From Chrysomallon squamiferum (Eukaryota > Animalia > Mollusca): a DNA stretch of 64,000 nucleotides. Location: assembly GCA_012295275.1 (NCBI GenBank), contig CM022665.1, positions 48,360,001 through 48,424,000 on the forward strand. Reading direction: 5' to 3'. Position numbers and translations under genes: made by a program. Below the pieces are notes generated by a model. The model was not told the DNA's origin. It searched no databases and saw only the letters and a list, made by a program, of their open reading frames with translations. Below, piece by piece: positions 555 to 43,811 of this stretch. Each line of letters begins with the position of its first letter. Positions within the stretch are counted from its first letter, which is position 1.

Positions 555-637
555 GAGAACATTGACAAAGCCATGTCTGACTACGAGTTGATTGAAGAGT
601 TCTACTACAATCTGTCCACTGATGACTTCAATGCAAA
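555..637 (+). CDS. DNAH1: Dynein HC exon w1 ([10 protein letters not shown]...DDFNAK), tail
   Basis: tttcag|GAG...AA|gtaagt, 83 nt, phase 0-2. Confidence 0.9.
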
Positions 638-644
638 GTAAGTA

Positions 645-689
<45 letters not shown>

Positions 690-694
690 TTTAA

Positions 695-749
<55 letters not shown>

Positions 750-3700: not shown

Positions 3701-6700
3701 ACTTTAAAGCAGTAGTTTAAAATCAGTATGCTGTCATATGAAAGCAATAATGTATAAACAATTACTGTAATATCAAAGCAGTTTACATAGTTTACTGTCA
3801 TATTAAATAAAGAGTCTATACACATTATACTGTCATATTGAAGTAGTAGTGTATATACAGTATACTGTCATCCTGAGGTAGTGTACAAACAGTATGATGT
3901 TATACTGAAGTACTAGTGTATGCCACATTGAAGTAGTAGTATATGCACAGTATACTGTCATATTGAAGTAGTAGTATGTACAACATTCTATCATAGAAGT
4001 AACGTATACACATTATACTGTCATATTAAAGTAGTAATATATACACGGTATACTGTCATAAATGAAGTAGCATGTATACAGTATACTGTCATAAGAATGC
4101 TATAATGTATACAATGTATACAATTGTAATGAAGTAGCATATACACAATATACAGTCATGTGAAAGCAATAATGTATACACAGTATACTGTCATTGAAGT
4201 AGTAGTGTATACACAGTCTACTGTAATAATGAAGTAGTAGTGTATACACAGTATACTGTAATAATGAAGTAGTAGTGTATGCAGGGTATACTGTAATAAT
4301 GAAATAGTGTATACACAGTCTACTGTAATAATGAAGTAGTAGTGTATACACAGTATACTGCAATAATGAAGTAGTGTATAGACAGTATACTGTAATAATG
4401 AAGTAGTGTATAGACAGTATACTGCCATATTGAAGCAATAATGTATGTTCAGTATACTATCATTCTTATAGCATGACAATATATTCTCACTTTAAAGCAG
4501 TAGTTTAAAATCAGTATGCTGTCATATGAAAGCAATAATGTATAAACAATTACTGTAATATCAAAGCAGTTTACATAGTTTACTGTCATATTAAATAAAG
4601 AGTCTATACACATTATACTGTCATATTGAAGTAGTAGTGTATATACAGTATACTGTCATCCTGAGGTAGTGTACAAACAGTATGATGTTATACTGAAGTA
4701 CTAGTGTATGCCACATTGAAGTAGTAGTATATGCACAGTATACTGTCATATTGAAGTAGTAGTATGTACAACATTCTATCATAGAAGTAACGTATACACA
4801 TTATACTGTCATATTAAAGTAGTAATATATACACGGTATACTGTCATAAATGAAGTAGCATGTATACAGTATACTGTCATAAGAATGCTATAATGTATAC
4901 AATGTATTTTAATGAAGTAGCATATACACAATATACAGTCATGTGAAAAGCAATAATGTATACACAGTATACTGTCATTGAAGTAGTAGTGTATACACAG
5001 TCTACTGTAATAATGAAGTAGTAGTGTATACACAGTATACTGTAATAATGAAGTAGTAGTGTATGCAGGGTATACTGTAATAATGAAATAGTGTATACAC
5101 AGTCTACTGTAATAATGAAGTAGTAGTGTATACAGGGTATACTGTAATAATGAAATAGTGTATACACAGTCTACTGTAATAATGAAGTAGTAGTGTATAC
5201 ACAGTATACTGCAATAATGAAGTAGTGTATAGACAGTATACTGTAATAATGAAGTAGTGTATAGACAGTATACTGCCATATTGAAGCAATAATGTATGTT
5301 CAGTATACTATCATTCTTATAGCATGACAATATATTCTCACTTTAAAGCAGTAGTTTAAAATCAGTATGCTGTCATATGAAAGCAATAATGTATAAACAA
5401 TTACTGTAATATCAAAGCAGTTTACATAGTTTACTGTCATATTAAATAAAGAGTCTATACACATTATATTGTGGAAAACAGCAATATTTATACTTAATAT
5501 AGTAAAACAGAAGCTTAATATCAATACTAAAACCATATAAAGTATCCTATCATGCACAGACATTGTCAATGAAACTGACTTGTTTTTGATACCATACTAA
5601 AGAGACATAGTGTACTGAGAAACATATGAAACAGTTTTAATTAATCTTTATAAAACATAGTTAATTTTATAATGTAGTATTTCATAATTAAACACACAGT
5701 ATGGCAAGTCTTGAATTCCACGTATGTATCAAATTTACTTTGAATGTTGTAAATTATTTTATAATCCACGTTTTTAATAAAATCAGCATGTCACCTAGAA
5801 ATTACTCATAGATCTTTACAGTTATTTAAAGATGGCAGACAGAATTTCGTTTATTTGGTATAAGATTAACATTTAAAATATTGGCATTTTGTGTGTGTGA
5901 ATACAACAGGTTAAATATTCTATACTAAATATATATAAATATATAATTATCCTTTTTTAATGCGTAATTTTGATGATTTTTTTTTTTTTTTTAATTCTAT
6001 GTGTTTGCAAATTTTATTTGTGGTATTTTCCTAATGCAGATTTTTCTGCAAAATATGATGTATGTACATTTTAATATACATGTTACATTTCACACAGCAA
6101 TAATATTATTAATTAAATTTGCAAATGTTTAATGTGGTAATATTAATTATGTAATTTGTTTTTGTTTTCTTCTGTTCATTAATAAACTGATTTTCATTGC
6201 TTAATCATAAATTTGTACTTTAATTATTTTTTTACTAAAACAAATTTTTGAATTTTACAAATGAAACAATTTTAAATTTCATATGGTATTGTATTCTATT
6301 GTTTTATTAATATGCAAAGATACTTAGTAAACTAGAATATTTTAACAACTTTTTAAAATTCCTGACATTTAGTTAATATGTTAGTATGCATATTTATTTA
6401 ATAATGTGATAATATGAACTGATATTTTATTAATATGTTAATATGAACTGATATTTTATTAATATGTTAATATGAACTGATATTTTATTAATATGTTAAT
6501 ATGCAGTGGTATTATTTGATAAATATGTTAATATGCACTGATATTTAATTAATACGTGTTAATTTGTTGACGTGAACTTTGTTCCAGTACGACAAGCTAA
6601 CAAAACTTGTGAAGGACTTTGAACCGTTCCGCAATCTGTGGATCACAGTTTCTGATTGGCTGAGGTGGAATGAGAGCTGGATGAACGATCCACTCACATC

Positions 6701-9700
6701 AATCAATGCAGAGGATGTTGAAAAGAATGTCAATGAGGCATACAAGACAATGCACAAGTCTGTGAAAATATTCCAGGATATACCCAGTAAGTGTTATGAG
6801 ATGTATTCCAGGATTTTCCTGGTGTTTGTATTCCAGGATGTACATAGTGTTTGTATTAGAGCATGTACAGTAAGTGATTGTATTACAAAATATATCTAAC
6901 GTTTGTATTACAGTATATACCTAGTAAGTGTTTGTATTACAAGATATATCAAGTAGTTGTATTACAAAATATATGTAATGCTTAAGTTATAAGATATATC
7001 AGTAAGTTACAAAATATACCCAATAAGTGTTTGGATTACAAGATGCATCAAGTAAGTTGTTGGAGTACAAAATAATAATTATTAGTATTATAAAATATAC
7101 CAGTAAGTGATTGTATTACAAGATATACCAGACTGTTTGAATTACAACATATATCTAGTGTTTGTATTACAATTTACATTACTGAATGTGTCAATATTAC
7201 AAAATGCTGAAGGCAAGTTATTTTAATAATATTTTTTATTTAACTAATTTCCTTGTGTATTATTAACAAAGATATTAAATATTGAATGCTTTATTACTTA
7301 TCACTTCAGTTTAAAAAAAATTAATTTCAGTAATTGTGTTTAAATTAATAATTTTTCATGTTTTTATTTTATCATCATACAATATACAAAAATTAATATT
7401 AAATGTTTTGTTTTATTCTGTGTTCAGCAGGAAAACTGAACTGTATTTGTTTGAAATGTTTTCAGACGTTGAAACTTTTATGTTTTGTACATGGACTTCG
7501 TGTTTTGTGGTTTGTGTTTTTACATTCTGTACATTGTGTTTTATGTTGATAATTTGAAAGGTTGGAATGTAGACTGGGACAGTAAGAAATTACTTTCATA
7601 TACCACATTGTAGTTTTAAAATTTCACTATGTCTCACTTCACTGTCATTATAGTAAAAAGCAACAGATTAAAAACTTGGCTAGAATCAGTCATGTCTCAT
7701 TATGTAAATTCATGGGATCATCGTAATTCATTTCTAATATATTACTTTGCAGTTATAAACAGATAAAAACAGTAGGAAAATAACAGCAAGAAAATAGAAA
7801 ATTTTAGTAAATTGTAAAATCATGAACAGATTTAGTATTTCATTGTGATAATCTCCACAAGTTCTTCATGTATGTAAGACTATATTAGAGAAGATTCACT
7901 GGTCAGATTGGGAAATTAGGTAATGGTAGAATTTAATTATTGCATAGTTATCACTCGATAGATATAGAAACTAGTACATGTTATTTTTCCATAATGTTAA
8001 TGTGCACACATTACACTATCATAACACTTTTTTATACAGAGGTCACTGGTTAGATCTGGAAATTAGGTACTGGTAGAACATAATTATTGTGCAATTATCA
8101 CAGGATAGACTATTAGAAACCAGAACATGTTATTATTACACAGTGATAATATAAACTAGTTCTACTGATATATACCACTGTTCTAGAGATCTTTCACTGG
8201 TCAGATTGGGAAATTAGGCAGTTGTAGAACATAATTATTTTGTAGTTATCACTGGTTAGGATATAGAAATTAGTAATATGTTATTTCTACACAATGATAA
8301 TATACACAAGTTTTCTTGATATATAACACTCTTCTAGAGACCATTCACTGGTTAGATTGGGAAATTAGGTAATTGTAGAACATAATTATTGTGTAGTTTT
8401 CACTGGGTAGGATATTAAAACTAGTGAATGTAATTTGTACACAATATATGCAATACTGATAAATGCAAGTTACACACAGAAACACACATCAAACATACAT
8501 CACGTATACATATACATTCATACATACATATGAAAATACATATAGATACATACATACATGCATACATATAGACACATTCATACATACATGCGTATCTTAT
8601 ATTATCTTTTATTCTAGAATTCATCTTTAACATGTATCTCATTTAAACTACTCTTAATATTCAGATAATATCATGTTATCAATAGCATATCAGTGAAATA
8701 CAATTCATTTTAGATTTTTTTTTCATTTCAAAGTATAGGTTTTATTCTGTTTTCAAATTTACAGTTTTAGAACATGTTATTAAATAGACCAGTGTAAGTA
8801 TTTTCTCTTCAATGTGTAATGAAGAGTGACAGTGTGACAGATGTGTTTGTTGATGTTTGCAGGTGTGCAGCAGGTTGCCATGGAAATCAAGGGAGAGATT
8901 GAGGAGTTCAGACCAAAGATTCCTCTCATTCAGGGTCTGCGCAACCCTGGCATGCGACATCGTCACTGGGACCAGGTTAGCAGCCACACACACACACACC
9001 CATATATACATAAGTACACACCCATATACACCCATATATACATCCAGACAGACATACCCACACGCATATATACATACACTCAGACAGACAAACATACATA
9101 CACTCACTCAGACACACACACACACACACACCCAGACAGACATACATATACACACATACAGATGTAGACACACACAAACATATACACACATACAAACCTA
9201 TATACATAGAGACATACATACATACAATCAGACACACACACAGACAGACAGACACACAGACACAGATAATAATAATAATGTTTGTGTTAGCAGACAGTTG
9301 AATGTTTACGTCTCATCAAAATAAATCTGCAGTGTTTCAAACACAGTTTTATAAAACATTTTTTGACAGCTGTCCGAGGAGCTTGGCTTCCCACTGCAAC
9401 TGAAAGCAAACCTGACGTTCTCCAAGTGTTTGGAGATGAATCTGCAGGAGCACATAACAACCATCGCCAAGGTGGCAGAGGTGGCAGGCAAAGAGTACTC
9501 CATTGAGCAGGTGTGTAGTGTAAACACATCAGTGTGTTATACAAACATCACACTCAGAAAAAAAAAAATATATATATATATATTTATATATAAATAAAAA
9601 TCAGAAATAAAATGTACACACATTTAAAATAATCTTTGAGTCAAACTAGAAGTTACCTTGTTAAAATTTATTGTATTATTACATATATTCTTTTTTTTTT

Positions 9701-9742
9701 ACTGGTTTTGTTGACTTTGTTATTGTTAGTGTTTTTCATTAC

Positions 9743-9807
<65 letters not shown>

Positions 9808-12725
9808 GTATTATTTTTATTATTATTGTTATTATTAAATAATGTTGTTTTGTTGTTTTTCCTTAGTTAATGTTATTAATATTATTACTTTTCATCATTA
9901 TCAATACTATTATTAGTACTGCTATTGTTATTAATGTCACTGTTTTTCATTATTATTATTATTAATATTACTATTATTATTGTAGTCTGTTGTTGTTGTT
10001 ACTATAACTATTATTATTATTACTATGATGTGACCAGGCTCTAGACAAGATGGAGAAGGAGTGGGAGCCAGTCATGTTTGAGATCATGCCGTACAAAGAG
10101 ACTGGGACTTTCATTCTCAAGAGTTCTGAGGACACGTCGCAGCTGCTTGATGACCACATCGTCATGACGCAGAGCATGTCGTTCTCACCGTACAAGAAAC
10201 CGTTCGAGGACCGCATCAACAGCTGGGAGGACAAACTGAGAACCACTCAGGTACAAAGTTCACACCTTGTGTGAAAACTTCACACTTCAATATTAAAATA
10301 TGCATGTGTAAGAATTTCATACTTAGAGTAAGAACGTCACAATGGCCAAAATATATGTGCAAAAATTGAACACTTTTCTGTAGAAATAAAGGGGGAAAAC
10401 TTCACTTTTCTGTACAAATGTGTGTAAAAACTTCACAGTGGCCAAATATAGCGGTAAAAATTGCATGCTTTTCTGTAAAAATAAAGGGGGAATGTTCACT
10501 TTTCTGTACAAATGTGTGTAAAAAGTTCACATTTTATGCAAACATGTGTATAAACTTCACATATTATGCAAAAATATGTGTAAAAACTTCACATTTTATG
10601 CAAAATATGTGAAAAAACTTCACATTGTAAATATTTCACACCTTGTTTAAACTCACTGAATTCATTCTCTGTTACAAACATGTTAAAACTGCACTGTGTA
10701 ATTAACTAACGGAATGTTTGAATTCTGCTGTCAGGACGTGCTGGATGAGTGGTTGCAGTGTCAGCGCTCGTGGCTCTACCTGGAGCCAATCTTCAGCTCG
10801 GAGGACATCAACAGACAGCTGCCTGTAGAGAGCAAGCGGTACCAGACCATGGAGAGGATGTGGCGCAAGATCATGAAAAACGCCAAGGAAAACCCTCAGG
10901 TATAGGCTTATAATATTTAAAATGTTTAGCAAATGTTTAGACAGACAGACAGACAGACACACACACACACGTATGTATGCTGAGACACACTAAAACATAT
11001 ATACACTCACAAGCATACACACAGACACACACCCAAGCACATGCACACAGACATATGCATGCAACTCAGACACACACATAAACACAGACACATACAAACA
11101 CACAAACTTATATATGCACACACACACACACACACACAGACATGAGCTTACACAAATGCACACAGACACACACTGAATCAGATACAGATACACACAAAAT
11201 TGACATTAATGATTTATTTTTTCTAATTTAATTTATATTTTGCTATAACACATTTTACTGTGACTGTTTCTGTATAGGTGATTTAATTTATATTTTGCTA
11301 TAACAAATATTACTTTGTTTCTGTACAGGTGATTTCTCTGTGTCCAGACAACCGACTGCTGGACAACCTGCGTGAGTCAAACAAACTGCTGGACCAGGTG
11401 CAGAAGGGACTCAGCGAGTACCTGGAAACCAAGAGAACAGCCTTCCCACGATTCTACTTCCTGTCCGATGACGAACTCCTGGAGATTCTCTCTCAGACCA
11501 AAGACCCAACTGCAGTCCAGCCTCATCTTAGGAAATGTTTTGAAAACATTGCCAAGGTAAAGACAGAGCTGTTTTGTCGTTGTTATCACTTTCACTGTAT
11601 CTGTATTAACAGTATTGTTCGTTCATTATTATACCAGTATCAAAGTCATAAAAAAACTGATTTATCATTGACACTGTGTTTGCAGTAATGTGTTTGTCTT
11701 GTGTTGCAGCTCAGATTTGAGGATGACACAAAGACAAAAGTGATTTATCAGTGACACTGTGTTTGCAGTAATGTGTTTGTCTTGTGTTGCAGCTCAGATT
11801 TGAGGATGACACAAAGACAAAAGTGATTTATCAGTGACACTGTGTTTGCAGTAATGTGTTTGTCTTGTGTTGCAGCTAAGATTTGAGGATGACACAAAGA
11901 CAAAAGTGATTTATCAGTGACACTGTGTTTGAAGTAATGTGTTTGTTTTGTGTTGCAGCTGAGATTTGAGGATGACCTGAAGATAACGAGGATGTACTCG
12001 GGGGAGGGGGAGGAGGTTGAGTTCCGTGAGTCGCTGTATCCAAACGGCAACGTGGAGGACTGGATGCTGGAGATTGAGCGCACAATGAAAGAGAGTCTCA
12101 GAATGATCATCAAAGACTCACTCAATGATTACAAAACTGTGAGTAACTCACACTACTTTTATCATCATTGACACAAAACTGTGAGTCATTCACATCATTT
12201 ATTATCATTTAAACAAATCTGTGAGTAACTCACATTACATTAGCATAAAATTGTGAGTCACTCACATCACATTTACACAAAACTGTGAGTCAGTCACACT
12301 ACTGTATTATCATTAACACAAAACTGTAAGATATATTTATCATAACTAACATTTTTATACTACTTATTTCTCACCTATTATTAGCTACTTAATACCTGAA
12401 CTTCAGATTTTACTACAATTTTATTATGTAATGGTTCTTACCTTCAGTTTTCACCTATAACTGACTACAATCATTCTCACTATAAAATACTTGTGTCGTA
12501 ATTAAAATACTTTTTTATTTCACTTGTTTCTCACCTGTTATTATACTTAATTATTACCAGTACTTCAGATTTTAATTTGTAATGGTTCTTAACTCTGGTA
12601 TTCATTCATATATTACTGAATATACTAATTCTCTCTATAAAATACCTGTTTATTCTAATTATTACCTCTAGTTTCCATTTTACTGAATGAAATCACTGCT
12701 AACAAGAAATTATATATATTTATTA

Positions 12726-12756
<31 letters not shown>

Positions 12757-15700
12757 TTTATTTATTTTTTATTTATATTTATTTAACTTTTTATTATTTA
12801 TTTATTTATTTATTTATATATTTATTATTATTTTATGTTTTTGATGACAGCGGCCACGTACAGAGTGGGTCCAGTACTGGCCTGGTCAAGTGGTTATTGC
12901 TGGCTGTCAGACGTACTGGAGCTCGGAGGTGACCGAGGCTCTGGAACAGGACAACATCGACGCGCGCTACAAGATTCTCCTGTCCCAGCTGGACGACCTC
13001 AGGGAGCTGGTCAGAACCGACATCAGCAAGATCGGCAGAATGACGCTGTCTGCCCTCATCGTCATCGAGGTGCACGCTCGCGACGTCGTCGCCAAGATGG
13101 TGGAGGAATCCATCCACAATTCCAACGCTTTTGAGTGGATCAGTCAGCTGAGGTCTGTGTTTTTCTATCTGACTTGCTCAGCTTAGCTGGGTTTACTAAT
13201 AACAAACAAACCCCTCTATATGGGTTTATCTATTATTGTGAGATCCCTAGATACAAGTTTATTAATGACTATGAAATCCCTATAAGTTCTTATCAAAGAC
13301 TATCAAATGGATTCAACAACCCATATTTACAACCATTTTTTTAAATTATTTAAACTTGTATAATAATTCTTGAAATACAATATTTTTTATTAATATACAG
13401 AATGGCTGTAAATATTAACCATTGTTAAAAATGACTGTAAGGTTATGATTTTTTTTAAATTTAAATTTGTATAATAACTCTTCAGTTACAATATTTTTTA
13501 TTAAGATAAGAAAATGGTTGTAAAATGTTATAAACCATTGTTTAAAATTGCTTGCTGTAAGTTTCAGATTTTTTTTATTTAAAATTGTATAATAATTCTT
13601 GAGAATAGATATTTATTTAATGCATCAATGCAGCTGTAAATATTATAAACGACTGTTAAACAGTATTAGTACTAAGTGAAAAGAAGAAGACGTATGTGTG
13701 TGTGTGTGTGTTTGTTAAACACTATTAGTACAAAGTTTAATTCACTGTGTGAAATAAAAAATACATGTGTGTTTGTTAAACACTATTAGTACTAATTCAC
13801 TGTGTGAAATAAAAAATACATGAGTGTGTGTTTGTTAAACACTATTAGTATTAAGTGTATTTCCCTGTGAAATGAAGAAGACACATGTGTATGTGTGTGT
13901 TTGTTAAACACTATTATTACAAAGTGTATTTCCATGTGAAATGAAGAAGACACATGTGTGTGTTTGTGTGTTGCAGGTATTACTGGCTGGAAGACGAAAA
14001 TCTCTACATCAGGGCTGTGAACGCTCAGTTCCCGTACGGCTACGAGTACCTGGGAAACACCGGCAGACTGGTCATCACCCCCCTCACTGACCGGTCAGTC
14101 AGTTTAACATTTATACAAATTTAAAAACATGAAATAATAAACTTTATTAAAAAATAAAAACATGAAATAAACAAACATTTTTTATATAAAAAAAGTTAAT
14201 ATGACTTCAAATAAAAAAACTGATAAAAAGTGAGATATTTGTGATGTTATCATCTGATACATTTTTCAAATAAGTTTTATAAAATAATGTTTGTGATGTT
14301 ATCTTACACTGGTAACATAAGAAGTTTTTTATAAAGTATGAACAAAAAACATTAAATAAATTAAAGTTATTTTTTGATGTTCAATCACACTTACATAAAT
14401 ATTTTTAAAGTGACAGATGTTACCTGACACTTACTGGAGCTCTGCATCTCAAGTTTGGAGGTGCTCCTGCAGGACCAGCTGGAACTGGAAAAACAGAGAC
14501 AACCAAGGTGAGTAAAACTGTTAACATAGTAATGATAGAGTAATGAATGCTTAGCATTCGATTTTTGATTAGAAATAAATACATTACACTTTAATACATA
14601 TATCTATTAAATATTGACAATATTAATATAATTTGTATTTGGCCTCTAAACACACATTTAAATATAGCATAAGTATTATCATTATTTTTATTTTGCCTAA
14701 AAACACACATTTAAATTTAAGTATTGTCATCATTAATATTTACCCTATAAACGAATGTTGATAAAAACTGTTGTTAAAAGAAGTTTGATCAGTGAAAGCA
14801 GACAGTAACAAAGTGTGCTGTGTAATTCAGGACTTGGCCAAGGCGTTTGCTATTCAGTGTGTCGTCTTCAACTGCTCCGATCAGCTCGACTTCATGGCCA
14901 TGGGAAAATTCTTCAAAGGTCTGGCAAGGTAAAGTGGTTCTTTGTTTGTTTAACGTGAAATAAATAACTGAAATAGAAAGTGCATCTAGATAAATAAATG
15001 TTAAATAAATTAAAATATTTAGTTTAATTTTAATTATAATTTGTAGTTAAATGTTGAATGCAGTGCAAATTTAGTGAATTCAAACACATCATAAATATAT
15101 CTGTATGTGTATGTTTGTGTTTGTAATGTATATATATGTGTGTGTGTGTGTAAATACATATGTATGTTTATGTATATATATTTGGATTTATAAATGCTAT
15201 TTGTTTTGTCTAATCAAGTTGTTTTCTAAATGTACAACATGTTTGTCACAGTCATACAATTACAGAACAGAGATTTTGATATTGTACAGTTAAATGTATG
15301 TATCACACACAGACATACACACAGACATACACACAAACATACATACACACAAAACAACCTGTCATTGTGTTTATAATAACAATGTGCTTTTTATTTCACT
15401 GTGTTGTACATACTGACAACACAAAAGTGTCAAGGTGTTTACACACTGACAACACACAAGTCTTAATGTGTTTACACACTGACAACACACAAGTTTTAAT
15501 GTGTTTATAATGACAAGGTGTTTTTAATATATTGTTTCACTGGGTTTAGACACAACAGATTAATGTATTTGCACTGTTGATGTTTTTACACACTGACAAC
15601 ACAAATGTTTTAATGTGTTTACACACTGACAGCACAATAGTTAATGTGTTTACACAACACAACACTGTTGATGTGTTTACACACTGACAAGTTAATGTGT

Positions 15701-16767
15701 TTACACAACACAGTAGTTAATGTGTTTACACAACACTGTTGATGTGTTTACACACTGACAACACAAGAGTTAATGTGTTTACACAACACTGTTGATGTGT
15801 TTCTGTGACATGCACTTCTGTTGCAGTTCGGGTGCGTGGGCGTGTTTTGACGAGTTTAACCGCATCGACGTTGAAGTGTTGTCTGTCGTAGCTCAGCAGA
15901 TCACCACCATTCAGAAAGCGCAGCAGCAGAGGGTGAGAGTCAGAGTTATCTGCTCTTTGCCTACACCAGCTACTCGCCATTAGTTTTCATTTCTCAGCTT
16001 TCCTTTAAACTTGCTTCGTCATCAGCATGATTGTTTTCTATTGTTGTTGTCATTGTCGTTGTAGTTGTTGTTGTTGTTGTTTACTGTTTTGTTTTTCAGA
16101 GCACAGACCTGTGGAAATGTGCAGTTTGAAATTATGAAGTTTAATTTTTCAATTTTTTTTTTTTAAATTTATATAATAATTCTGTAAACAAAAGTTATTT
16201 ATTTATTAATATATTTTTTTTTTTTGCTTCACAAAATGTATTTATTTTTTAAATAATAATAATTGTTTTGTGAAGAAACTTTATTTTCAAATAATAATAT
16301 TTAATTTTAAAAATAATAAATATATATTATTTCAAATAATGGTAATAATAATACGAAGAAGAACTGAAGACTATTGTAAATGAAGTGACAGTATTTTCAG
16401 TGTCACTCACTGTTCCACAGTTCTGTGTTATTCTTTTCAGATGTTTTCTACTTCAGCTGATTTCCCAAACTGTTTCATTTTTTTCATAAATTAGAAAAAA
16501 TTCATCTTTCTGCAATAGAAAAAGTAGTTTTTCTTCATTTTAGCCATTTTTTTATATTTTTAATTTTTTAATACCATTTTTTTAAAAAGATATCTCATAA
16601 ACTTGCTTGATAGATTAAAATGATGCTGTACTGACACTGATGTTGTTGTTGCTGCTGTTGTTATCTGTCTGATGATGCCTTATTTCTGATGACTAACTTT
16701 TTGATCAGTAGTTAGTTGTTTCAGTCTTTATCTTTTCTTTTTAGGCTTTTATTAAAAATTATTTAAT

Positions 16768-16798
<31 letters not shown>

Positions 16799-16832
16799 TT
16801 ATTTTATTATTTATTTATTTATTATAATTTTG

Positions 16833-16872
<40 letters not shown>

Positions 16873-18085
16873 TTTTTAATTCTTTTTTTTTTTTTTTTTT
16901 TAAATGTAAAACCATAATGAGAATTTGAAAATCACTTGGAAATGTAAAATTGTGTTTTATAATCAGTAGAAAGCAAGGTTTGTTAAAATAGAACATACAG
17001 TGAAATATATATATTTACCTGTTGTTTGTTGTCAAGAGTAAGTTTGTTGTTGGAATGTCTGAATATAAGAAAACTGGAATTTGATTTGATTAACTACTGA
17101 GTTAGCATATTTTGACATTTAATATAATTTCTAAGTACAGAAACTTAAATCAGACAGCTTGATTCTGATTTGGTTTTATTTTCCTCTAGATGCACTAGAT
17201 GTTATTATTATATATATTTTTATTTTTTTTTAAATTTGCTTGAAGACTTTACAAAAGTTGCCTCTTACTGCCTGACATTTAAATGTTTTTGATTTGTTTT
17301 GTTACTTGTGACATTGTTGTTGAGTTGTGCTTGTTTCTAATGACGATGTTCACTCTAGTTCCGGAGCCTGGGCCTGCTTTGACGAGTTTAACCGTATTGA
17401 CATAGAGGTGCTGTCTGTCGTTGCCATGCAAATCATGACAATAACCAGAGCCCAGCTGGAGAAGGTACATCTTGTGTTGTGTTTCACTGGGCATGGAAGA
17501 ACAGCAAAGGGCTTGTGTTGTGTTTCACTGGGCATGGAACAACACAGGGCTTGTGTTGTGTTTCACTGGGCATGGAACAACACACATGGCTTGTGTTGTG
17601 TTTCACTGGGCATGGAACAACACACAGGGCTTGTGTTGTGTTTCACTGGGCATGGAACAACACACATGGCTTGTGTTGTGTTTCACTGGGCATGGAACAA
17701 CACACATGGCTTGTGTTGTGTTTCACTGGGCATGGAACAACACACATGGCTTGTGTTGTGTTTCACTGGGCATGGAACAACACAGGGCTTGGAAACACTC
17801 CCTCCTCCTCCCAGTCTAATAATAATAATAATAATAATAATTACATTACCAGTTTTACAGTGGTTTTTGTTTTGTTTTTTAACACATTTTGTTTCCTGCT
17901 TATTTATTTCAGTTTTGCTGCTTTGTTTGCTTTGAATTGCTTTGTTGTGTTTGTTTTTTTTGTTTTTCTTAATTTATTAATTTTTGTTTAATAAATATCC
18001 CTTCCTTAAACCTTTAAAACCTTTTTTAAAAAGCACATGCTTCCTTGTTACTTGAAATATTGTTTAATATCCAAGAAGAAATTAC

Positions 18086-18121
<36 letters not shown>

Positions 18122-19815
18122 TAATAATAATAATAATAATAATAATAAGAAGAAGAACTTGTAGTTTTACATACTTGATAAAAGACAAATCAAACAGGCA
18201 ATTTGTCAATGATATTAAGGTTTTTTTAGCTGATTATATATATATTTTTTTGTCACCTATTTTGATCATTATTCAGTTTTATATTATTTCATTTTGTTAT
18301 AATAATGATTATTATTATTATTTATTTATTTGTTTTATTCAAAAAGAAAAGAAAAAGAGCATAATTTCTAGTCTTTCTTTGTTTTTTTTTTTATCAGATT
18401 TGGGTTGAAGTATATTGTTATATTAGTTTTCAGTTCACATAATTCATTAAGGCATGAGTTAAAGTAACAAATTTTTGTCTGTGAACATTCAAAAACAAAA
18501 ATTAATTTGTTCATATATCCATCCATCATTCTGTTCATATATCCATCCATTTGTTCATGTATCCATTCATCTTCTGTTCATATATCCATCCATTTGTTCA
18601 TATATCCATCCATCTGTATGTACATCTATCCATGCACATAACAGTGTTTGTTGTATTTTACTTTACTAATGCATGAATCACATCAGGTTTCTCTTTCCTT
18701 GCACCTTCTGTTTAGTTTATTAAACACAGTTATATTCATCATTTGTTTTATTATATTTGCTTTTAATATAACAAATTTTACAAATTTAAGTTTCATGATC
18801 ATAATTTCCATATTTTAATTTCACACCTTTTTGTTTTGGTTTTTATTTAAATATTTGTGACCAGTTAAAAATGCTTTTTTTTTTTTTTTTTTTTTTTTAG
18901 AAAGTTTTATTTCAAATATATTTTAACAACAAACAGTATTTGTTTTTATTTACATTGAACTAGAAGTTAGTTGCAATGGTAACTGTTTAAATAGTAAAAG
19001 TTGAAAAAGAAACTGTTGTAGAAGTGGAATTCTTTGTTTGAAATGGTAACAGCTGTGTTAAAACTGTGTTACAACTGTGTTACAACTGTGTTAGAACTGT
19101 GTTAAAACTGTTACAACTGTGTTAAAGCTGTGTTAAAACTGTGTTAAAAATGTGTTAGAACTGTGTTAAAGCTGTGTTACAGCTGTGTTAAAGCTGTGTT
19201 ACAGCTGTGTTAAAGCTGTGTTAAAGCTGTGTTAAAGCTGTGCTGTGTGTGTTACAACTGTGTTAAAGCTGTGTTACAACTGTGTTAAAGCTGTGTTGTG
19301 TGTGTTTTCAGGTTGACAGGTTTATCTTTGAGGGAGTGGAGTTGGTGTTGAAGGCTTCGTGTGCTGTGTTTATCACCATGAACCCCGGCTACGCTGGCCG
19401 CACAGAGCTGCCCGACAATCTCAAAGTAAAACACAAACATCTTTTAATTTAAAACAAATTTTTAATTTTTTTTAAATTTCAATTTATTTTTTTATTTTTT
19501 TTTTTTTATTTATGTTTATTATTTATTTTCCTTTTATTATCTTCTTTTTTTAAAATTTATTTTCTTATTAATTTTGTTTATTTATTATATTTTTTATTTA
19601 TTTGTTTATTTATTATATTTATTTATTTATTTGTTATTATTATTATTTTTTTTTTTTTTGTTAGTGGTGGGGGTTTTTTTAAATGTAATTTACATATTTT
19701 TGTTAGGTTATTTCTTAATTATTTTTATTATAATTTTTAAATATTTGTTATATTTTAATTTTTTATTTGTTTATTTATTTAATTTTTAATTTTATTATTT
19801 ATTTATTATTATTAT

Positions 19816-19866
<51 letters not shown>

Positions 19867-22800
19867 CATCATCATCATTATTCATGTTTTTTTTTTTTTA
19901 AAATACACATCTGATAAAACTGAGGTAAAAGAAAAACTAATTTCTCAAATCCACTTTAAGAAATGTAAGAATATCTAGCACTGTTAATGTAAGTGTGACT
20001 TGTTCTGGTTGCAGGCTCTGTTCAGACCTGTTGCTATGATGGTGCCAGACTATGCCCTGATTGCAGAAATCAGTCTGTTCTCATTTGGTTTCTCTGAGGC
20101 CAGAAATCTGTCCAAGAAAATTGTCACCACATTCAAACTGTCATCAGAACAGCTCAGCTCTCAAGTAAGTTATTTTATTTTATTTTATGGTTTTATAATT
20201 TCTATATAAATTAGATAGTAAGCAAATTGGAATTGTTGTTCATTCTGAAGTATCTTTTTTACTTTTTATTTTTATCATTTTTTTGTACATTTATATGTTA
20301 ATAAATAGCAAGCACATTCAAATTATTGTCAGTTCTCAAGTAACCCTTTTGTAATTTATTTTTAATATAAATTTATATGCTAATAAGTTTTTACATCTTT
20401 ATTTTTTAATATAAATGTATGTGATGATAAGTAAATAGTATTACATTAAAATTGTTGTCAGTGCTGAAGTAACTTTTTTATGTTTTTACTGTTAATATAA
20501 AGTTAAAAAAATTGAAAGAAAACATCAACTGCTACTTAGTTATAGTTATTATTACTATTTTTATCAATTTTATTATTAGTGTTATTATTGTTATAAATAT
20601 TGTTATTTTATTATTATTATTATTATTATTATTGTTATTATTGTTACTATTATTACTGTTAATACTATTACTATGATTATTATTATTATTATAATTATTA
20701 TTATTATTATTTTTTATTATTGTTATTATTGTTATTGTACTGAGTGTTATGTGTTTGACTAGGATCATTATGACTTTGGTATGAGGGCTGTGAAGAGTGT
20801 AATTTCAGCAGCAGGAAATCTCAAACGACAGTACCCAGACATGGACGAGGTTTGTCGTTTTCTAAATACATTTTCTGATAAATATTATCTTAACTGTTGT
20901 TACTTCCAGTTCAGTGTACTGTTTATATCTAAATATATTTTCTGTTGTACATTGTCTTAGTCGTTATTTGCAGTTAAGTCTAGTGTTTATATCTAAGTAC
21001 ATTTTCTATTGTATAGTCTCTTAGTTGTTATCTTCACTTTCTTTTTCAGTTTATATCTAAATATATTTTCTGTTGTATATTGTCTTAGTTATTATTTGTA
21101 CATCAAACATCAACAACTAATTAAGTGTTGAAGTAACAGACAACACAAGACAAGACAGCTTTTAATCCAGGATAAAGACCATAGGACCATAATACAGTCA
21201 CAAACTGTCAAACAGTGTTTGCACATTTTACTGTTGGTATATTTTAAATATTTAAATATTTCTAAGTTTTTAGCAGTTTATAAAAGATAAAGTCATACAT
21301 TAAATAACCCATTCAGATTATCTGATGTTAGAGCACCTCAGTGGGAAGATAATGTTTATGAATATTTTTAGTTCACAAGTGGATTTTTTCATTTCTTGTT
21401 TGTCTAGGAGCTGATTGCACTGAGAGCCATCAGAGATGTGAATGTGCCCAAGTTTCTGGTGGATGATCTCAAACTGTTCAGTGGTATTGTGTCTGATCTC
21501 TTTCCTAACATCAAGTAAGTAGTGTGAATTTACTAATTACATAGTAAATATCTAACAATACAGCTAGTGTCAAAGACATCTTATTGTTCTTGTTAGACTT
21601 GTGTATGTCTCAGTTTAAACTGTTCAGTGGTATTGTGTCTGATCTGTTTCCTAACATCAAGTAAGTAATGTGAATTTACTAATTACATAGTAAATATCTA
21701 ACAATACAGCTATTGTCAAAGACATCTTATTGTAAAGTTCATCTAAACAATACAGCTAGTAAATATCTAACAATACAGCTAGTGTCAAAGACATCTTATT
21801 GTTCTTGTTAGACTTGTGTGTGTCTCAGTTTAAACTATTCAGTGGTATTGTGTCTGATCTGTTTCCTAACATCAAGTAAGTATGAACCACTTTGAAATTA
21901 CTAATTACATAGTAAATACCTAACAATACAGCTACTGTTAAAGCATTTGTCTAAAGCATTTCAATGTTCTTGTTAGACTTGTGAGTCTAGATTGAAACTG
22001 TTTTTTTAAAAAGTAAAAATTAATTCAAGAGTTTGGTTAAGGCAGTGTTGAGATTTGTGGTTCATCTGTTTGTATGATTGTGTATTTTTTTTCGAGTAGC
22101 AGTTTGGAAAAAGCAGAAGAGTAAGTATCAAAGGAAAGATAAAGATTACAAATCACTTTAAAAACTGTCACTCGAGTAGATCACAGTCTCAAATAGTTTG
22201 AAACCGTCATTTTAGATGGTTTTTAAATAGACATGACAGGTGGTTTGAAACTGTCACGTTGAAATTTTTTAAATTGTCACTTTTAATAATTCAAAACTTT
22301 TCACTGAGACTGGTTTAAAATTGTCACTAAAAAATTTGTGAATGTCACTTAGAATAGTTTAAAATTGTCACATTGAATAGTTTAAAGCTGTCACTATGTC
22401 TGGTTTAAAACTTGTCACTTTGTCTTGTTTATAATTGTCATTTTGAATAGTTTAAAAATGTCGGTTTATGACTGGTTTAGTATTGTCACTGAATAGTTTA
22501 TGAACATCACTTTGAATAGTTTAAAATTGACACTTTGAATAGTTCAAAACCTTTGACCTGCCAAAAATGGCTGCTTCAGCATGATGGTGTTTGATAATTT
22601 ATGTATTAAAATTATCTCTCTGAATGGTTAAAAACTGTCACATTGAATGGCTACAAAACACTTATTTTGGACAAAATATTTATGATTTAGTTTGAACACA
22701 ACACAAACTGATTGTTAAACAGAGATAAATTTACTGTAAGAACACCAGCATGAGAAGAAAATATTTTCACATTTCTTTTTATATACAACAATTGCTGCAG

Positions 22801-25136
22801 TGAAATGTAGTTTGTGATATCTCACCTGATGCATCAAATTAAACACTTATATTTCTCCTTTTATTTTTATTATTATTATTATGATTATTATTATTCTTTC
22901 TTGGTCATATCAACACAAGCAGCATTGAATCACAGACAGCAGATTAAAAAAATATGTTATCTCTAAATGTAATTTCAAATTTAAATGAAAACATATAAAG
23001 AGAATTTTCATTGCATTTAATCATATTGCAAAGAAATATTTATTTGTTGAGAAAACAGAACTACTACTGACATAATGTTTTAATGTTAAAAAGAAATATT
23101 TTTAATGTAGAGAACTTCTAATAGTGCAAATATATGTTTTTGTCAAAATGTTATTAAAGAGCCTATTACTGGTAATAATAATGAAAGTAAATGTTTTCAG
23201 AGAGGAGCCTATTGACTATGGAGCTCTTGAAACTTCGCTCAGAAAGAGCTGTCTGAAGTCAGGACTCAAAGATGTTGACGGTAAAAAAAATTATTTGTCA
23301 CTTTACATTTAGTAATAATATAAGATTATCTGTCTTGTTAAAAATAAGTAACTATAAAATAATCTTGTTTTCTTTTTTTTTCTAATACATTGATGTTAAA
23401 TAAGTATTTTATATTAAAAGTGTAATGTTGTAATTTTTATATACTAGTAATATTTTATTTATGATTAATAAATAATTATTGTATATATTAAAGGCATAAT
23501 ATTGTAATTTTGCAAAAATAATGTTATTTTATGCACTGATGTTAAATCATTGTTATTTTATATGTTGATATTTAATAATTAGTATGTATACTAAAAATGT
23601 AACAATATATAGAAACTATAATGTTTATATATGTGTGTCTATATAATAATAATGTTGTAAATAACTATTATATATTCAGATTTTATCAAGATGTGTGTAC
23701 AGCTGTATGATACTACTGTGTTTTTGTTGTGTGTATATAACATGTTACTGCATACAGTGATGTTAAATAATCACTATATAATAAAAATATAATTACTGTA
23801 AATTCAGGTTTTATCAAGAAGTACATACAGCTGTATGATACTACTGTGTTTTTGTTGTGTGTATATAACATGTTACTGCATACAGTGATGTTAAATAATC
23901 ACTATATAATAAAAATATAATTACTGTAAATTCAGGTTTTATCAAGAAGTGCATACATCTGTATGAAACTACTGTGTTTTTGTTGTGTGTATATAACATG
24001 TTATTGCATACACTGATATTAATCACTCTATAATAAAAATAAAACTATTCTTTACTCAGGTTTTATCAAGAAGTGCATACAGCTGTATGAAACGACTGTC
24101 GTCAGACATGGTCTCATGTTGGTAGGACCCACAGCTTCAGGAAAAACAAAGGTTAGTTTAACATTCTGAAATATTAAATACAAACCAGAAAATCCTTCAC
24201 TGGCAGTTTAATTATTGTGTCTTACAGGCGCACACCTCATAGTTTGAGTTTGAAAAGATTCATGTCAGTTTGTAAGTAAAGTGTATTTGAAGAAAAGGTG
24301 ATGATGGGGCTGTGATATATTAATAGATATCTTACAGTGCTAAACAGAAAATCCGGATATTAGAGATTTCAGTAGGAGTATATAGTATTCTATGCTTAAT
24401 ATCACATATATATAATAATTAAAATTCTAAACTATATAGTATTATGATATTAATATCATAAATAATCAACATTCTGTATAGGTATATATTACACTGGTGT
24501 TTAATGTCACATATAAATAATAAACATGATATATAATAATATATTACACTGATATATTTAACATCATATTTGATAATAAGCATTATATATAAGACTGTAT
24601 TACACTGGTGTTTGCTATCAGATACTAATAACTAATTGTTTTCTCACAGTGTTACCAGATTCTTCAGAAAGCGATGTCCTCACTGAAAGGACAACCCTCT
24701 CCGGCTGGGATAGACTTCGAAACAGTTCAAACGTTCATCCTCAACCCCAAGTCTATCACAATGGGGCAGCTGTATGGAGAGTTCGACATTCTCACTCACG
24801 AATGGTAAGTCTTAGTTACAAAAACACAAGTCTATCACAATGGGGCAGCTGTACGGAGAGTTCGACATCCTCACTCACGAATGGTAAGTCTTGTTTACAA
24901 AAACACAAGTCTATCACAATGGGGCAGCTGTATGGAGAGTTCGACATCCTCACTCACGAATGGTAAGTCTTAGTTACAAAAACACAAGTCTATCACAATG
25001 GGGCAGCTGTACGGAGAGTTCGACATCCTCACTCACGAATGGTAAGTCTTAGTTACAAAAACACAAGTGTTTCACAATGAAGAAGAAATCACTGATCAGA
25101 GGAGGAGCATCTGCTACAGACACACACACAGACACA

Positions 25137-25174
<38 letters not shown>

Positions 25175-25733
25175 TACAAACACACACACATACACAGACA
25201 CACACACATACTCACACACACACATGTATATAATAAACATTGTGACAAGTTGGTTTGTTTGTACAGGACTGATGGTATTTTGTCCTCACTGATACGAGGA
25301 GGAGCATCTGCTACAGACACAGACTACAGGTGGTTCATATTCGACGGTCCGGTTGACGCTGTGTGGATAGAAAACATGAACACCGTCCTCGACGACAACA
25401 AGAAACTCTGCCTGAGCAGCGGAGAAATCATCAAACTATCTGATGTGAGTTTTTATCTGGTTTTTTATACATCCACACACCTATACAAACACCCTGTGTA
25501 AGCATTTGATGAAGAAGAAGAACAAAGGAAATTACTAATATATATATATTTATATCAACTTGTTACCTCTTCTTGACACTTTGGTATATTTTCATAATGT
25601 CAGAATTTGTTTTTCTTTTATAAGATTTCACTTGATTCAGAAATGTTTATTGTTTGTAAGATATATAAACAGTGTTAAAATTAAATTTTTACCAAAAACT
25701 AAACCCTTAGTACTTTATGTGTTTTTTATTATT

Positions 25734-25808
<75 letters not shown>

Positions 25809-25923
25809 TTTTTGTTTATTTATTTTTATTTATTTTGTTTTATTTTATTTATTTATTCATTAACTTGTATATTTATTTATTTGGTTATTTATATTTTTAT
25901 TACTTCTTTTTTTATTTATTTTC

Positions 25924-25958
<35 letters not shown>

Positions 25959-26425
25959 CTAACTTACTTGCTTACTTATTTCTAGGGAATGACTATGATG
26001 TTTGAGGTGGCTGATCTGGCGGTGGCATCGCCTGCCACTGTGAGTCGCTGCGGCATGGTTTACCTGGAGCCCAGCTACATCGGACTTGAACCATTTGTTG
26101 AGTGCTGGCTGAAAAAACTTCCTGACAACATCTACCCTTACAGAGAAAAACTTCAGTCTCTGTTTGACCAGTTCTTGCAGGTTTGTTTTAATTTACACTG
26201 TTACCTTTTATACTTTTATCATTGTTTTATATTTCAGGTTGTTGTCAAGTTTTTACATGAGAGATAATCTTTTGTTATTATTTTATATCATTATAAATTA
26301 TTATATATTTTATTTTGTTATTACATTATTTATTTCATTTTATTTTAAATCATTATAAATTATAATATATTTAATTTTATGTTATTACATTATGTATTTT
26401 ATTATTATTTTAAATCATTATAAAT

Positions 26426-26467
<42 letters not shown>

Positions 26468-26528
26468 TTTATTATTATTTTATATTATTGAATCATATGT
26501 ATTTCATTATAATAGTATATTATTACAT

Positions 26529-26614
<86 letters not shown>

Positions 26615-28818
26615 CATTACTGTTTTGTATGATTATATTTTATACTGTACTGTTACTGTGTGTTTCAGCCTGTCAGCCTGTCATCAAGTTTGTGCGGAAT
26701 CACATGAAGGAGATTGTGTCCACAGTGGACGGAAACCTCGTGTTCAGCATCCTCAAACTGCTTGACTGCTTCTTCTCACCTTTCATACCTAAAGAGGTAC
26801 TTTACCTGTTCTCACCTGTAGTCAGCACTGTTAACTAGCACGTGTGTGATCATTAATACCTGTTTGTAGACGTGTATACTAATAAATTTAGGATTACATC
26901 GTTACCTATTTTATTACCCTTTCCAGGTTTTTTTGTCAGTGAATTTAAAAAAAAAAATGTTTAGTTAAAGAACAATATCTAAATTTTATATCAAGGTTTA
27001 TATATATATATATACTGTTTTTTTGGAGGTTCTATTTTTTTTTTTTTTTTTTTAAGGGGTATGATGGTTTTCTTTTTTTAATAATAATATTTGAATATTT
27101 TTAACAATCAATTTTCATATTTTTTCTCAGTATCAGTCACAAGTAATAATATTTTTTATTGAAAGAAAAAATGTCACTAATGATTCATTCAACTAGGATG
27201 GCTAATATAATGAATAAACTTATTCTTATCTTCTTATCTTAACTTTTGCAACTCAGTAAATAATGTGTAAACTAGTAATTTTCTTATCTATTACAATTTA
27301 GTAAATAATGTAATAATTACTAATTCTGTTATCTTTTACTGAGTAAAGAGATTATTAATTTACTTCTGTGTAAAATTTCACTTTATGGAAAACAAAAAAA
27401 ATCACTTTCATTTGCTGCTAATTTCACATAGTCACACAGTAAATGTTCACAGTTTTTAGTTTTCTGATTCAATTACAGCTAATAATTAAATTTTTTATTT
27501 CTTTACTTTTATTTTGTTTTAATTTTTATTTTTTTATTTTTTAAATTATTATTTTAATTTTTTTTTTTTTTTTTTTTTTTTTTTAAGGGATTAGTGCTTT
27601 TGGGGATTTTTTTATATTTTTTGGTTTATTTGGTTTTATTTTTCCCAAAGTTAGATAAGAATGCAAAACACTGGAAATGTGATTAAAATTTACACTAAAT
27701 GTTGTTGCATGATAATTACATGTGTGTTAGCCTCCAACTAATAGAAATTTACACAAAATTTACACTAAAACATTACCATAGTGAATTACGTGTGTCAGCT
27801 TTTGTAGCACCTGTTTTTAGTTAAGTGTGTGTGTGTGCTGTACATGTTTGTTGCTGATGTTTATTAATGATGCTGTTTTTGTGCTTCATTCACCCATGTT
27901 TTTACTGCACTGTGCTGTGTGACTCACTGACTTGCAGGCTCGACAACGCAGAGTGGTAAGACGTGTCACCTTTTTTATCTTCACAGTTCACTTGTTTTAT
28001 TAACCTTTTCTTCTTTTTTCTTCTTTTTTCTCTTATTTTAAAAAAACAACAACAAAAAACAACTATAATAGCACTTGATTTTTATATAATTTTTAGAACA
28101 TGCAATTTGTAAAAAATAAGCTAAAAATTATAATATGCTTAATTCATTTAGATGCAGGTTTTTTTGTTGTTTTTCAATTTCATGATTTGTCTTTCAGTTT
28201 TAAACTTTAAAAAAAAAAAGATTAAATAAAAAATTAAAAAAGATTAAAATCTTAATCCAAGGCTTGCCTTTTCATAAAATCTACTAACATTAATTAATTT
28301 TTTGTTGATAATTCTGGCTTGAAATAAAATTAACATGCTTTTTAAAAAAATATATATATACATATCCTTTCTTTTCCTATTTTTAAATTTGCTTTCATGG
28401 AGATGACAACTTTCTTTTACATTTCTTATGTGTTGTAATCATAAAGATTCTTTTTCACAAGTTCATTTTTGTCATTATAGTACAAACCAAAAAACATTAT
28501 ATACAAACACATATGTAGAAACTGTTCAATAGAACTACACCATTATCACTATCTATGCTGGGGTCTGAAAAAGCACACCACCCAGAAAATATATTTAAAA
28601 ATAATTTAATGTTTTTAAATGTTTGAGCAGGAAGAATTTTATTTTAAACAAAGCTTCATCAGGACACAAGCTTGTCGTAATCATTTCTGTTCACTTAAAT
28701 GTGTTTAAATTCTAGAATTTCATTCATATTTACTCACAAGTTTGTCTTCACTCTTTGATTTTATTTTTATTATTATTATTATTATTATGGGTCAGGTTCA
28801 CTATTATATACATATACA

Positions 28819-28849
<31 letters not shown>

Positions 28850-31318
28850 TCATTTTGTGATCTTGTCTCTGCAAGTTTTCTATCCAGTTAGATTCTGTCT
28901 CTGATAAATGTTTCTGCATTTTAAGGTTTCAGAATTTTTCTTCTTTACTTGAAATGAAAATTGAAATTTCACTTAGAAATTTATTTTAATTGTTTGATAA
29001 ATTTCTCACCCAGAAGAATTTATCTTTTTGTGTAGATCACTCAGAAGAATTTATCTTCATTACTTTGTGTAGATTTTATCTCACTCAGAAGAATTTATCT
29101 TCATTACTTTGTGTAGATTTTATCTCACTCAGAAGAATTTATCTTCATTACTTTGTGTAGATTTTATCTCAGTCAGAAGAATTTATCTTTATTACTTTGT
29201 GTAGATTTTATCTACTCAGAATTTATCTTCATTACTTTATAGATTTTTATCTCACTGTAGATTTTCTTCATTTCATTCATTCAGAAGAATTTATCTGTAT
29301 TACTTTATATGTAGAAATATTTTATTGAGAAAGATTTTCAATGTGGATTTTTCCCTACTTGATGTTTAGATTTATCTCTCAGAATTTATCTTCACTTCAC
29401 TATGTTTAGATTTTATCTCTCAGAATTTATCTTCACTTCACTATGTTTAGATTTTATCTCTTAGAATTTATCTTCTTCACTATGAATTTTATCTTCATCT
29501 TCACTTCACTATGTTTAGATTTTATCTCTTTATCTTCACTTCAATGTTCATTTTATCTCTTATTTATCTTCACTTCACTATGATTAGATTTTATCTCTCA
29601 GAATTTATCTTCACTTCACTATTTTTATCTCTTATTCTCACTATGTTTAAAATCTCTCAAATTTATCTTCACTTCACTATGTTTAGATTTTATCTCTCAG
29701 AATTTATCTTCACTTCACTATGTTCAGATTTTATCTCTCTGAAGAATTCATCTTCACTACTTGATATGGAGATTTTATTTCACTCAAAAGAATTTATCTT
29801 CACTACTTGTGTAGATTACATCTCACTCAGAATAATTTATCATTCCTCACTCAGTTAATTTGTCTACACCAAGTGCAGATTTTCTTCACTCACTGAATTT
29901 TGTCTACACTGCATTAAGTGTAGAAGTTTCTTCACTCAGTGTCTACACTAAGTGAAATTATTTTATCACTCTTGGAATTTGTCTACACTAAGTGAAGATC
30001 TTTCCTTATTCAGTGAATTTGTCTACACTCTTTGAGTGTATATCTCGTGTGCTGTGTTTACTTTTTTATCTCCCTCTCTCCTTTCTCTGCCATCTTTAGA
30101 CAGTCATCTTGGATGATGATGACGAATTTGTGAGTAAAGAAGAATTGTATAGGAAGATTTAATAATCATAACACATACACATACATTTTTAAAATTTATT
30201 TATTTTAATTTTCTTTTTCTTCTTCTTCTTCTTCTTCCTTTTCTTCTTCTTCTTCTTCTTCTTCTTATTATTATTTTTATTTTTATTTTATTTATGTGAT
30301 TTAATAAGCAGACACATACATGTACCTTTTTTTCAAATGAATTTATTTTATTATTTATATATTTATTTATTTATTTATTTATTTATTTATATAATTTAAT
30401 TAATTAATTTATTTTTTGAAATACATCATTGCATTGAGATTTAATAAACACATTTACATACATACATTTATTCATTTATTGCTTTGTATAATACATCATT
30501 GTGTTACTATGCTGTAGTTTCCTGGATGTCCTTGCTATGTTGTTTTGTTATTATATCATAACATTATCATAGTTTATAATAGTGAAGTCTGACTTATTTA
30601 TGTTTTTCTTTAGAAAACACAGAATACAATATGTAGATAAAAAAAAATTGTTGTTTGTTCATATATTTAAAATATGATTTATTAAACATTAACATTTTAA
30701 ATGTTGAAAGCTGTTGTATATAATAATGCTCTTTTCAATTGATATTTATTTATTCTTTTAGTATAATTTATTAAAACTTTATTAACATTTTAAATTTTTG
30801 TTCTTTTTTAAATTTTCATTGTTATTATATAAAATTATGTTCTTTTTTAAATTTTCATAGTTATTATATAAAATTTATGTTCTTTTTAACAGATTTTAAT
30901 TTTATTTTATTTAGTCTTTTACTATAACTTACTAAACTTTATCAACACTTTAAATACTATTTTTTCAAACCTGCTGTTGTATATAACTGTGTTATGTGTT
31001 GTTACCAGGGAGAGAAGCCAATACCGGAGTATCGGTTAAAACGAATTGGAGAACTCATCGAGCCTTGGTTCATCTTTTCTCTTGTGTGGAGTTTTGGAGC
31101 CACCTGTGACAACAACTCCAGATCCAAGTTCTCCAACTGGCTCCGTGAAAAGATGAGAGAACACAATGTAAAAACACTTAGCTTAAAATATCTACAGCTT
31201 TGTATTGTTTTTAGAAATTTCACACAATTTTTATTATTATTATTATTGTTCTATATATATATATATATATTATTTAAAAATCTCATAATCTGTTAATTGT
31301 TGTTAAAATGTCACATAT

Positions 31319-31364
<46 letters not shown>

Positions 31365-34166: not shown

Positions 34167-34232
<66 letters not shown>

Positions 34233-43624: not shown

Positions 43625-43662
<38 letters not shown>

Positions 43663-43765: not shown

Positions 43766-43811
<46 letters not shown>

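Follow-up and report, generated by a model that had tools for sequence, protein, structure and literature searches.

The diversity of ciliary dyneins is usually credited to gene duplication. A mutually exclusive exon in a dynein heavy chain gene has been described for SmDHC1 of Schistosoma mansoni (Pillmann et al. 2011, PMC3228551), and some dynein heavy chain genes are stated to have alternative splice forms of the motor domain, with DHC1 as the sole example named in the accessible part of that text (Kollmar 2016, PMC5100056). Its manual curation may have included the pair reported here. Substitutions of tandem duplicated exons are generally ancient, retain core residues and show conservative changes, and about 70% of them are tissue-specific in human proteomics; the words dynein, DNAH and DYNC are absent from the main text of this source (PMC9741552). 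For molluscs, a splicing table from the gonad of Pinctada maxima lists a mutually exclusive event for DYNC1H1 and has no row for the DNAH1 gene among the rows listed, and the same paper cites sea-cucumber work on sex-specific DNAH1 isoforms (PMC12000136). Our search of the literature, with subscription journals mostly outside its range, yielded no description of a DNAH1 exon pair in AAA1. Thus, the class of event is known and this particular event is latent in RefSeq; descriptions of how old it is, of the selection on it and of its structural meaning seem to be lacking.

The window analysed here, a stretch of 64,000 nucleotides from the mollusc Chrysomallon squamiferum, contains a partial gene of about 55 exons, which corresponds to residues ~829–3956 of the abalone DNAH1, as located by tblastn and a junction search (Table 1). 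Compared to the full-length protein of Haliotis rufescens, the best of 27 proteins tried, the identity was 81% over 3221 aligned residues. The top PDB matches of the exon b peptide were three DNAH1 chains, whose helix resembles that of exon a. The gene is DNAH1, as the original prediction had proposed, the best sequence and structure matches being in agreement. In a tree of constitutive-exon peptides without the cassette, the window grouped with Haliotis (UFboot 70) inside the gastropods (UFboot 67), so that a gastropod origin is probable with modest support; this tree took in named DNAH1 only and is informative on the lineage but not on the subfamily. The exons on either side of the cassette gave single matches with the abalone query and are single-copy, so the a/b pair is not a gene duplicate.

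Table 1. Features of the partial DNAH1 gene around the exon pair (positions within the window)
Feature	Position	Strand	Basis
DNAH1 (inner-arm single-headed dynein; DHC8/IAD4), partial	552..63206	+	tblastn and junction search, Haliotis rufescens DNAH1
AAA1 Walker A exon (GPAGTGKT), constitutive	14417..14507	+	
Constitutive exon 5' of the cassette; AAA1 strand S2 and helix H2; phase 2 end	14831..14928	+	structure from model
Exon a, ancestral form; Walker B and helix H3; weak acceptor	15827..15932	+	
Intron between a and b, 1426 nt	15933..17358	+	
Exon b, derived form; Walker B and helix H3; weak acceptor, below-median donor	17359..17464	+	
Tandem repeat, ~40-nt units, starting 7 nt past the b donor	17471..17791	+	
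Constitutive exon 3' of the cassette; AAA1 PS-I hairpin and sensor-I strand; phase 0 start	19312..19425	+	motif per PMC4047620

The exon structure of the gene varies at other places as well. Two exons of the window (13977–14093 and 14417–14507) are represented by one exon in another locus described below (L001, 315–521), indicating the gain or loss of an intron. In abalone and scallop, short optional segments distinguish further isoforms at abalone residues ~2034–2045 and ~3763–3772. The corresponding introns of the window (26797–31008 and 55473–59158) are long, gave a poor fit in the junction search and may hold small cassette exons.

The original prediction had described two open exons of 106 nt in phase 2 to 0 with canonical splice sites about 1.4 kb apart, and their coordinates were confirmed, including AG before and GT after each exon. 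The two exons share 78 of 106 nucleotides (blastn E 3e-13 within the window) and differ by 15 silent codon changes and 8 residue changes out of 35 (V15I, Q23M, T26M, Q29T, K30R, Q33L, Q34E and R35K), leaving 27 of 35 residues identical. Our recount thus gave the same number of changed codons as predicted, with the Walker-B segment kept and most changes in the following helix. The silent sites are saturated (pS 0.75), whereas replacement sites are much less changed (pN 0.13). In the six frames of the window, the AAA1 Walker-B peptide occurs just twice, and the likeness of a and b is far beyond chance. No similarity was found between the intron sequences flanking a and those flanking b. Tandem repeats of the gene also contain nearly identical part-copies of exons, each comprising an exon start or end together with its splice site (21587–21661, 21820–21876, 23936–23976 and 24828–25042), among them one half-exon in three copies with its GT donor. 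These copies are recent repeat expansions and not full exons; the a/b pair, with its unrelated flanks and saturated silent sites, differs from them as had been anticipated.

Joining the exons in silico to their constitutive neighbours left the frame open with either a alone or b alone. Inclusion of both led to a stop 22 nt into b, and omission of both to a stop inside the next exon, which bears out the claim that either event breaks the frame. These premature stops are located dozens of introns before the end of the gene, and transcripts with such early stops are expected to undergo nonsense-mediated decay; therefore, both kinds of product would be expected to be degraded. The pair further shows equal length, compatible frame and splice sites, homology and adjacency between constitutive exons, the membership criteria used in PMC3228551.

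To find the pair in other genomes, we searched metagenome contigs with a degenerate motif pattern of the b type and obtained five loci (L001–L005). Three of them (L001, L002 and L004) contain a and b in tandem, each with 106 nt, AG/GT borders and the same phase, and the order a-b is identical in all four cases seen, including the window. The contigs of L003 and L005 begin too late to include a and show b directly before the next exon. The near-identical loci L001 and L002 group with heterodont bivalves, and L004, with 146 residues and weak support at the base of the molluscs, could not be placed; L003 and L005 were too short for the constitutive-exon tree and were left out. The ~40-nt tandem repeat downstream of b in the window is absent after b in the other loci compared. 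In a DNA tree of ten exon copies (106 nt), all six b copies were separated from all four a copies (UFboot 93). Together with the occurrence of both forms in mollusc proteins, the tandem arrangement in three further loci agrees with the predicted old age of the duplication.

For the proposed selection on b, the original prediction had suggested a dN/dS-type comparison, and between b copies we obtained pS 0.92 and pN 0.042 (window vs. L004), 0.90 and 0.043 (window vs. L003) and 0.79 and 0.116 (window vs. L001). Fisher tests of silent against replacement changes on rounded counts gave p ~1e-15 for L004 and ~1e-14 for L003, ranging to 3e-9. Moreover, the protein P0002 contains a b identical in 35 of 35 residues between different flanks. 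Judged from these substitution patterns, exon b is under purifying selection and no relic. Across seven species, b drifts faster than a (on average 6.4 vs. 1.4 residue differences, about four times), which also fits relaxed constraint. Exon a is identical to alligator DNAH1 in 34 of 35 residues, in line with the earlier view of a as the vertebrate-like and b as the derived form, and the sequences indicate that a is the ancestral form.

The use of both exons is reflected in annotated proteins of relatives. Exon b of the window is identical in 34 of 35 residues to the abalone isoform X3 and in 33 of 35 to isoform X2 of Ruditapes, and b forms of gastropods and clams share 32–34 of 35 residues. 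Both forms are annotated in Mytilus trossulus, M. galloprovincialis, M. edulis, Mizuhopecten, Argopecten, Haliotis rufescens, Ruditapes and Mercenaria; by hand count, this amounts to at least 8 of the 16 mollusc species for which two or more of the listed proteins cover the exon. The other eight (Mya, Littorina, Babylonia, Biomphalaria glabrata, Patella caerulea, Haliotis cracherodii and two octopuses) have one form among the listed proteins, with at most 15 members listed per cluster, e.g., 15 of the 58 in Mytilus and 15 of the 30 in venerids. None of the 45 proteins tallied contains two copies of the exon. Five isoform pairs of the same length differ only within the exon, by 6–8 residues (Argopecten X1/X2 and X3/X4, Mizuhopecten X6/X7, Haliotis rufescens X3/X4 and Mercenaria X10/X11), and a sixth same-length pair from Patella caerulea differs elsewhere. 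The isoforms are automatic RefSeq models, and such models rest on RNA alignments. The predicted mutual exclusion thus has its counterpart in the annotated mollusc proteins tallied, which hold one form or the other and never both.

Among cephalopods, the annotation of Octopus bimaculoides shows a diverged a-like form, and those of O. sinensis, O. vulgaris and Argonauta show a b-like form. The b-like form is also spliced into three Logan proteins that cluster with DNAH1 of cuttlefish; for one of them with 4202 amino acids, the longest contig of the cluster row is 12,917 nt, from which we infer an mRNA origin. Isoform sets of Lineus, Ptychodera, Nematostella, Branchiostoma, sea stars, sea cucumbers and Schistosoma revealed one form per species at the level of annotation, with a one-residue difference between contigs in Branchiostoma. 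A candidate two-copy cassette in Exaiptasia (P0121) was rejected as a multi-exon repeat of identical sequence. Some snails without b among their listed isoforms possess a diverged DNAH1 paralogue, whose H3 has also diverged: P0260 in Babylonia and P0288/P0600 in Biomphalaria represent a second gene, and in Aplysia (P0272) the diverged copy was the only one retrieved. In those snails, a duplicated gene may have taken the place of the exon pair.

RNA of C. squamiferum was available as assembled contigs without tissue label from four runs of one study, which were placed on b and its flanks. Unspliced contigs covered b at a depth of 3–4 in two runs, and there was no cover in the other two. No junction reads, joints or loose ends over b were present in these four low-depth runs, and one contig spans b and both flanks as assembled. 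The four runs neither show nor exclude the use of b.

Splice sites were scored with a matrix from the cleanly called sites of the gene itself (43 acceptors and 46 donors), dropping doubtful junctions. The acceptor of a scored below all 43 constitutive acceptors and that of b below 41 of the 43, while the donor of b was below 37 of 46 donors. The intron between a and b has a length of 461–1635 nt in the four cases seen, and introns of that length exceed what simple steric exclusion would allow. The AG-free zone preceding b is short in the window; it extends over 34–55 nt in five loci and over 139 nt in L004. Known mechanisms of exclusion also include Dscam-like docking sites with a selector and OGDH-like distant branch points; a search for conserved intronic elements among the five distant loci revealed nothing beyond AT-rich chance matches. 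Weak competing acceptors combined with decay of frameshifted products would be the default explanation of exclusion.

With either exon, Walker A, Walker B and sensor I (including MNPGY) remain intact. We built an AAA1 model from the abalone b isoform, which was of middling quality (pLDDT 73, pTM 0.51, without contacts) and had two DNAH1 chains with 82–83% identity as its best structural matches. The exon corresponds to strand S3 with Walker B (residues 86–90) and helix H3 (97–115) of the model, followed by the hairpin (120–129). Five of the eight changes (23, 26, 30, 33 and 34) lie at 60–160 degrees on a helical wheel and position 29 at the boundary, and the changed face points away from that formed by L18, V21, I25 and I28. 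In all seven species compared, b exceeds a in the joint hydrophobicity of positions 23, 26, 29, 30 and 33. The original prediction, which placed the duplicate exons at the Walker-B catalytic segment, is to be narrowed in that Walker B itself is identical in a and b and helix H3 varies.

Among 101 non-mollusc DNAH1, Q23 is conserved in 100, and so is Q29; M23 is not diagnostic of b, as it also occurs in a of abalone, in a of L001 and L002 and in the nemertean Tubulanus, and b of L001 and L002 has T23. M26 is present in 15 of 114 other dynein matches and is thus tolerated elsewhere. According to the structural literature, the PS-I hairpin covers the H2–H3 cleft, its glutamate lies near AAA6 in inner-arm dyneins and the AAA6–AAA1 interface is flexible (PMC4047620), the C-terminus of the linker sits tightly on AAA1L (PMC4879348), and small movements of AAA1L drive AAA6 rotation and stalk registry (bioRxiv 2024.05.01.592044). 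With the changes on one face of H3 and Walker B unchanged, b is predicted to alter packing and coupling rather than chemistry. Exon b likely tunes the coupling of AAA1 to the ring and not catalysis, as far as the model indicates; any tuning of the ATPase by the pair would concern coupling.

Further variation was observed in this region of dyneins. In the b forms of mussels and scallops (P0357, P0371 and relatives), an asparagine replaces the aspartate located five positions C-terminal of the Walker-B glutamate; this aspartate is invariant in 101 of 101 non-mollusc DNAH1. Three DNAH6-like open reading frames from ENA (P0009, P0010 and P0011) carry a diverged repeat of the second half of the exon, i.e., H3 only, about 20 codons downstream. 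This repeat might represent an alternative H3 that another inner-arm dynein acquired independently. Two other ENA sequences (P0005 and P0006) have a Walker-B exon with an unusual helix and a diverged second Walker-B-like start about 30 codons later.

An assembly artefact, an uncollapsed haplotype or the remnant of a whole-gene duplicate might be suspected in a gene whose tandem repeats contain several partial exon copies of nearly the same sequence, but the pS of 0.75 between a and b, the unrelated flanks, the single neighbouring exons, the same layout in independent loci and the RNA-run contig across b and its flanks render this practically negligible. That b is a dead pseudo-exon in this species would be consistent with its weak splice sites and with the lack of a spliced read over b in the four low-depth RNA runs. 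It is nonetheless very improbable, given the open frame, the intact AG/GT borders, a pN/pS near 0.05 against other species and the agreement with the annotated abalone isoform (34/35) and P0002 (35/35); the acceptor of a is weaker still.

Several independent duplications in bivalves, gastropods and cephalopods with convergent b-like residues would explain that the second forms of scallops, mussels and cephalopods differ from b of the window in 8–9 of 35 residues. The genomic order is known only from the window, L001, L002 and L004, and the DNAH6-like gene seems to have duplicated part of the same helix. Nevertheless, the grouping of the b copies in a DNA tree based on just 106 nt (UFboot 93), the constant a-b order in all four cases and the 32–34 of 35 residues shared by gastropod and clam b argue for a common origin, and we regard separate origins as quite unlikely. 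The exons might also be spliced exclusively and still yield equivalent proteins, with b as a tolerated, unregulated alternative or as a means of dosing DNAH1 by unproductive splicing. This would fit the identical catalytic motif, the roughly fourfold faster evolution of b and the occurrence of several b residues in other dyneins. We consider it unlikely, as the b signature of M23, M26, T29 and R30 is kept from a gastropod to venerid clams although silent sites are saturated, a span over which a redundant exon would be expected to decay.

We are highly confident that a and b form a functional mutually exclusive pair. As a whole, the locus is very likely explained by an old tandem duplicate of the Walker-B/H3 exon of DNAH1, probably spliced one-or-other into two motors of equal length which are predicted to differ in coupling. 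On the simplest reading, one duplication would have occurred before the split of bivalves and gastropods, perhaps before that of cephalopods. Exclusion would then operate via the two weak competing acceptors, the both and neither products being removed by nonsense-mediated decay. The more hydrophobic H3 face of b (23, 26, 30, 33 and 34) may repack on the PS-I hairpin, AAA6 or the base of the linker, and the repacked helix may shift ring opening, ADP release or the switching of microtubule affinity. We slightly favour the prediction that the two motors differ measurably in their kinetics.

The choice of a or b may finally be regulated by cell type. The share of about 70% tissue-specific cases among human substitutions provides a prior for such regulation, and control of the putative choice by tissue or stage is rather likely; a division specifically between sperm and somatic cilia is a possible, though not a probable, candidate. 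The most far-reaching and rather doubtful version would be that the gearing of inner-arm dynein d in molluscs is switched from one cell type to another, e.g., between the sperm tail and gill or larval cilia, via one face of H3 in AAA1, which is nearly invariant in the DNAH1 of other animals. H3 would then serve ciliary dyneins repeatedly as a tuning element, with the DNAH6-like partial duplicate and the whole-gene duplicates of snails lacking an annotated b as further instances.

One gene appears to supply two variants of the motor core, kept across at least two mollusc classes which separated roughly 500 million years ago. The pair thereby represents a natural experiment in which 6–12 residues differ in a motor of 4200 residues, beside but outside the main ATP site, which makes the role of AAA1 H3 in coupling directly testable. 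In practical terms, mollusc DNAH1 annotations with a single isoform mix non-equivalent exons, as in the Octopus species, and can distort trees and selection scans.

Compared to known systems, the RefSeq models of DNAH1-like isoforms from Mytilus, Mizuhopecten, Argopecten, Haliotis, Ruditapes and Mercenaria contain the same exon in the same two forms and thus represent the orthologous event, but they are automatic and come without a description, age or function. In the accessible part of PMC5100056, neither DHC8/DNAH1 nor AAA1 or molluscs are named for such splicing. SmDHC1 resembles the DNAH1 pair in being a dynein heavy chain with two homologous tandem exons of equal length that are used one-or-other; it differs as a cytoplasmic dynein-1 with split codons at both exon ends, whereas the DNAH1 pair is axonemal, in phase 2 to 0 and located in AAA1 (PMC3228551). 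The muscle myosin heavy chain genes of arthropods likewise substitute tandem exons inside a motor domain; according to the same source, their clusters are many and tune mechanochemistry (PMC3228551), whereas DNAH1 has one two-exon cassette in a ciliary AAA+ motor.
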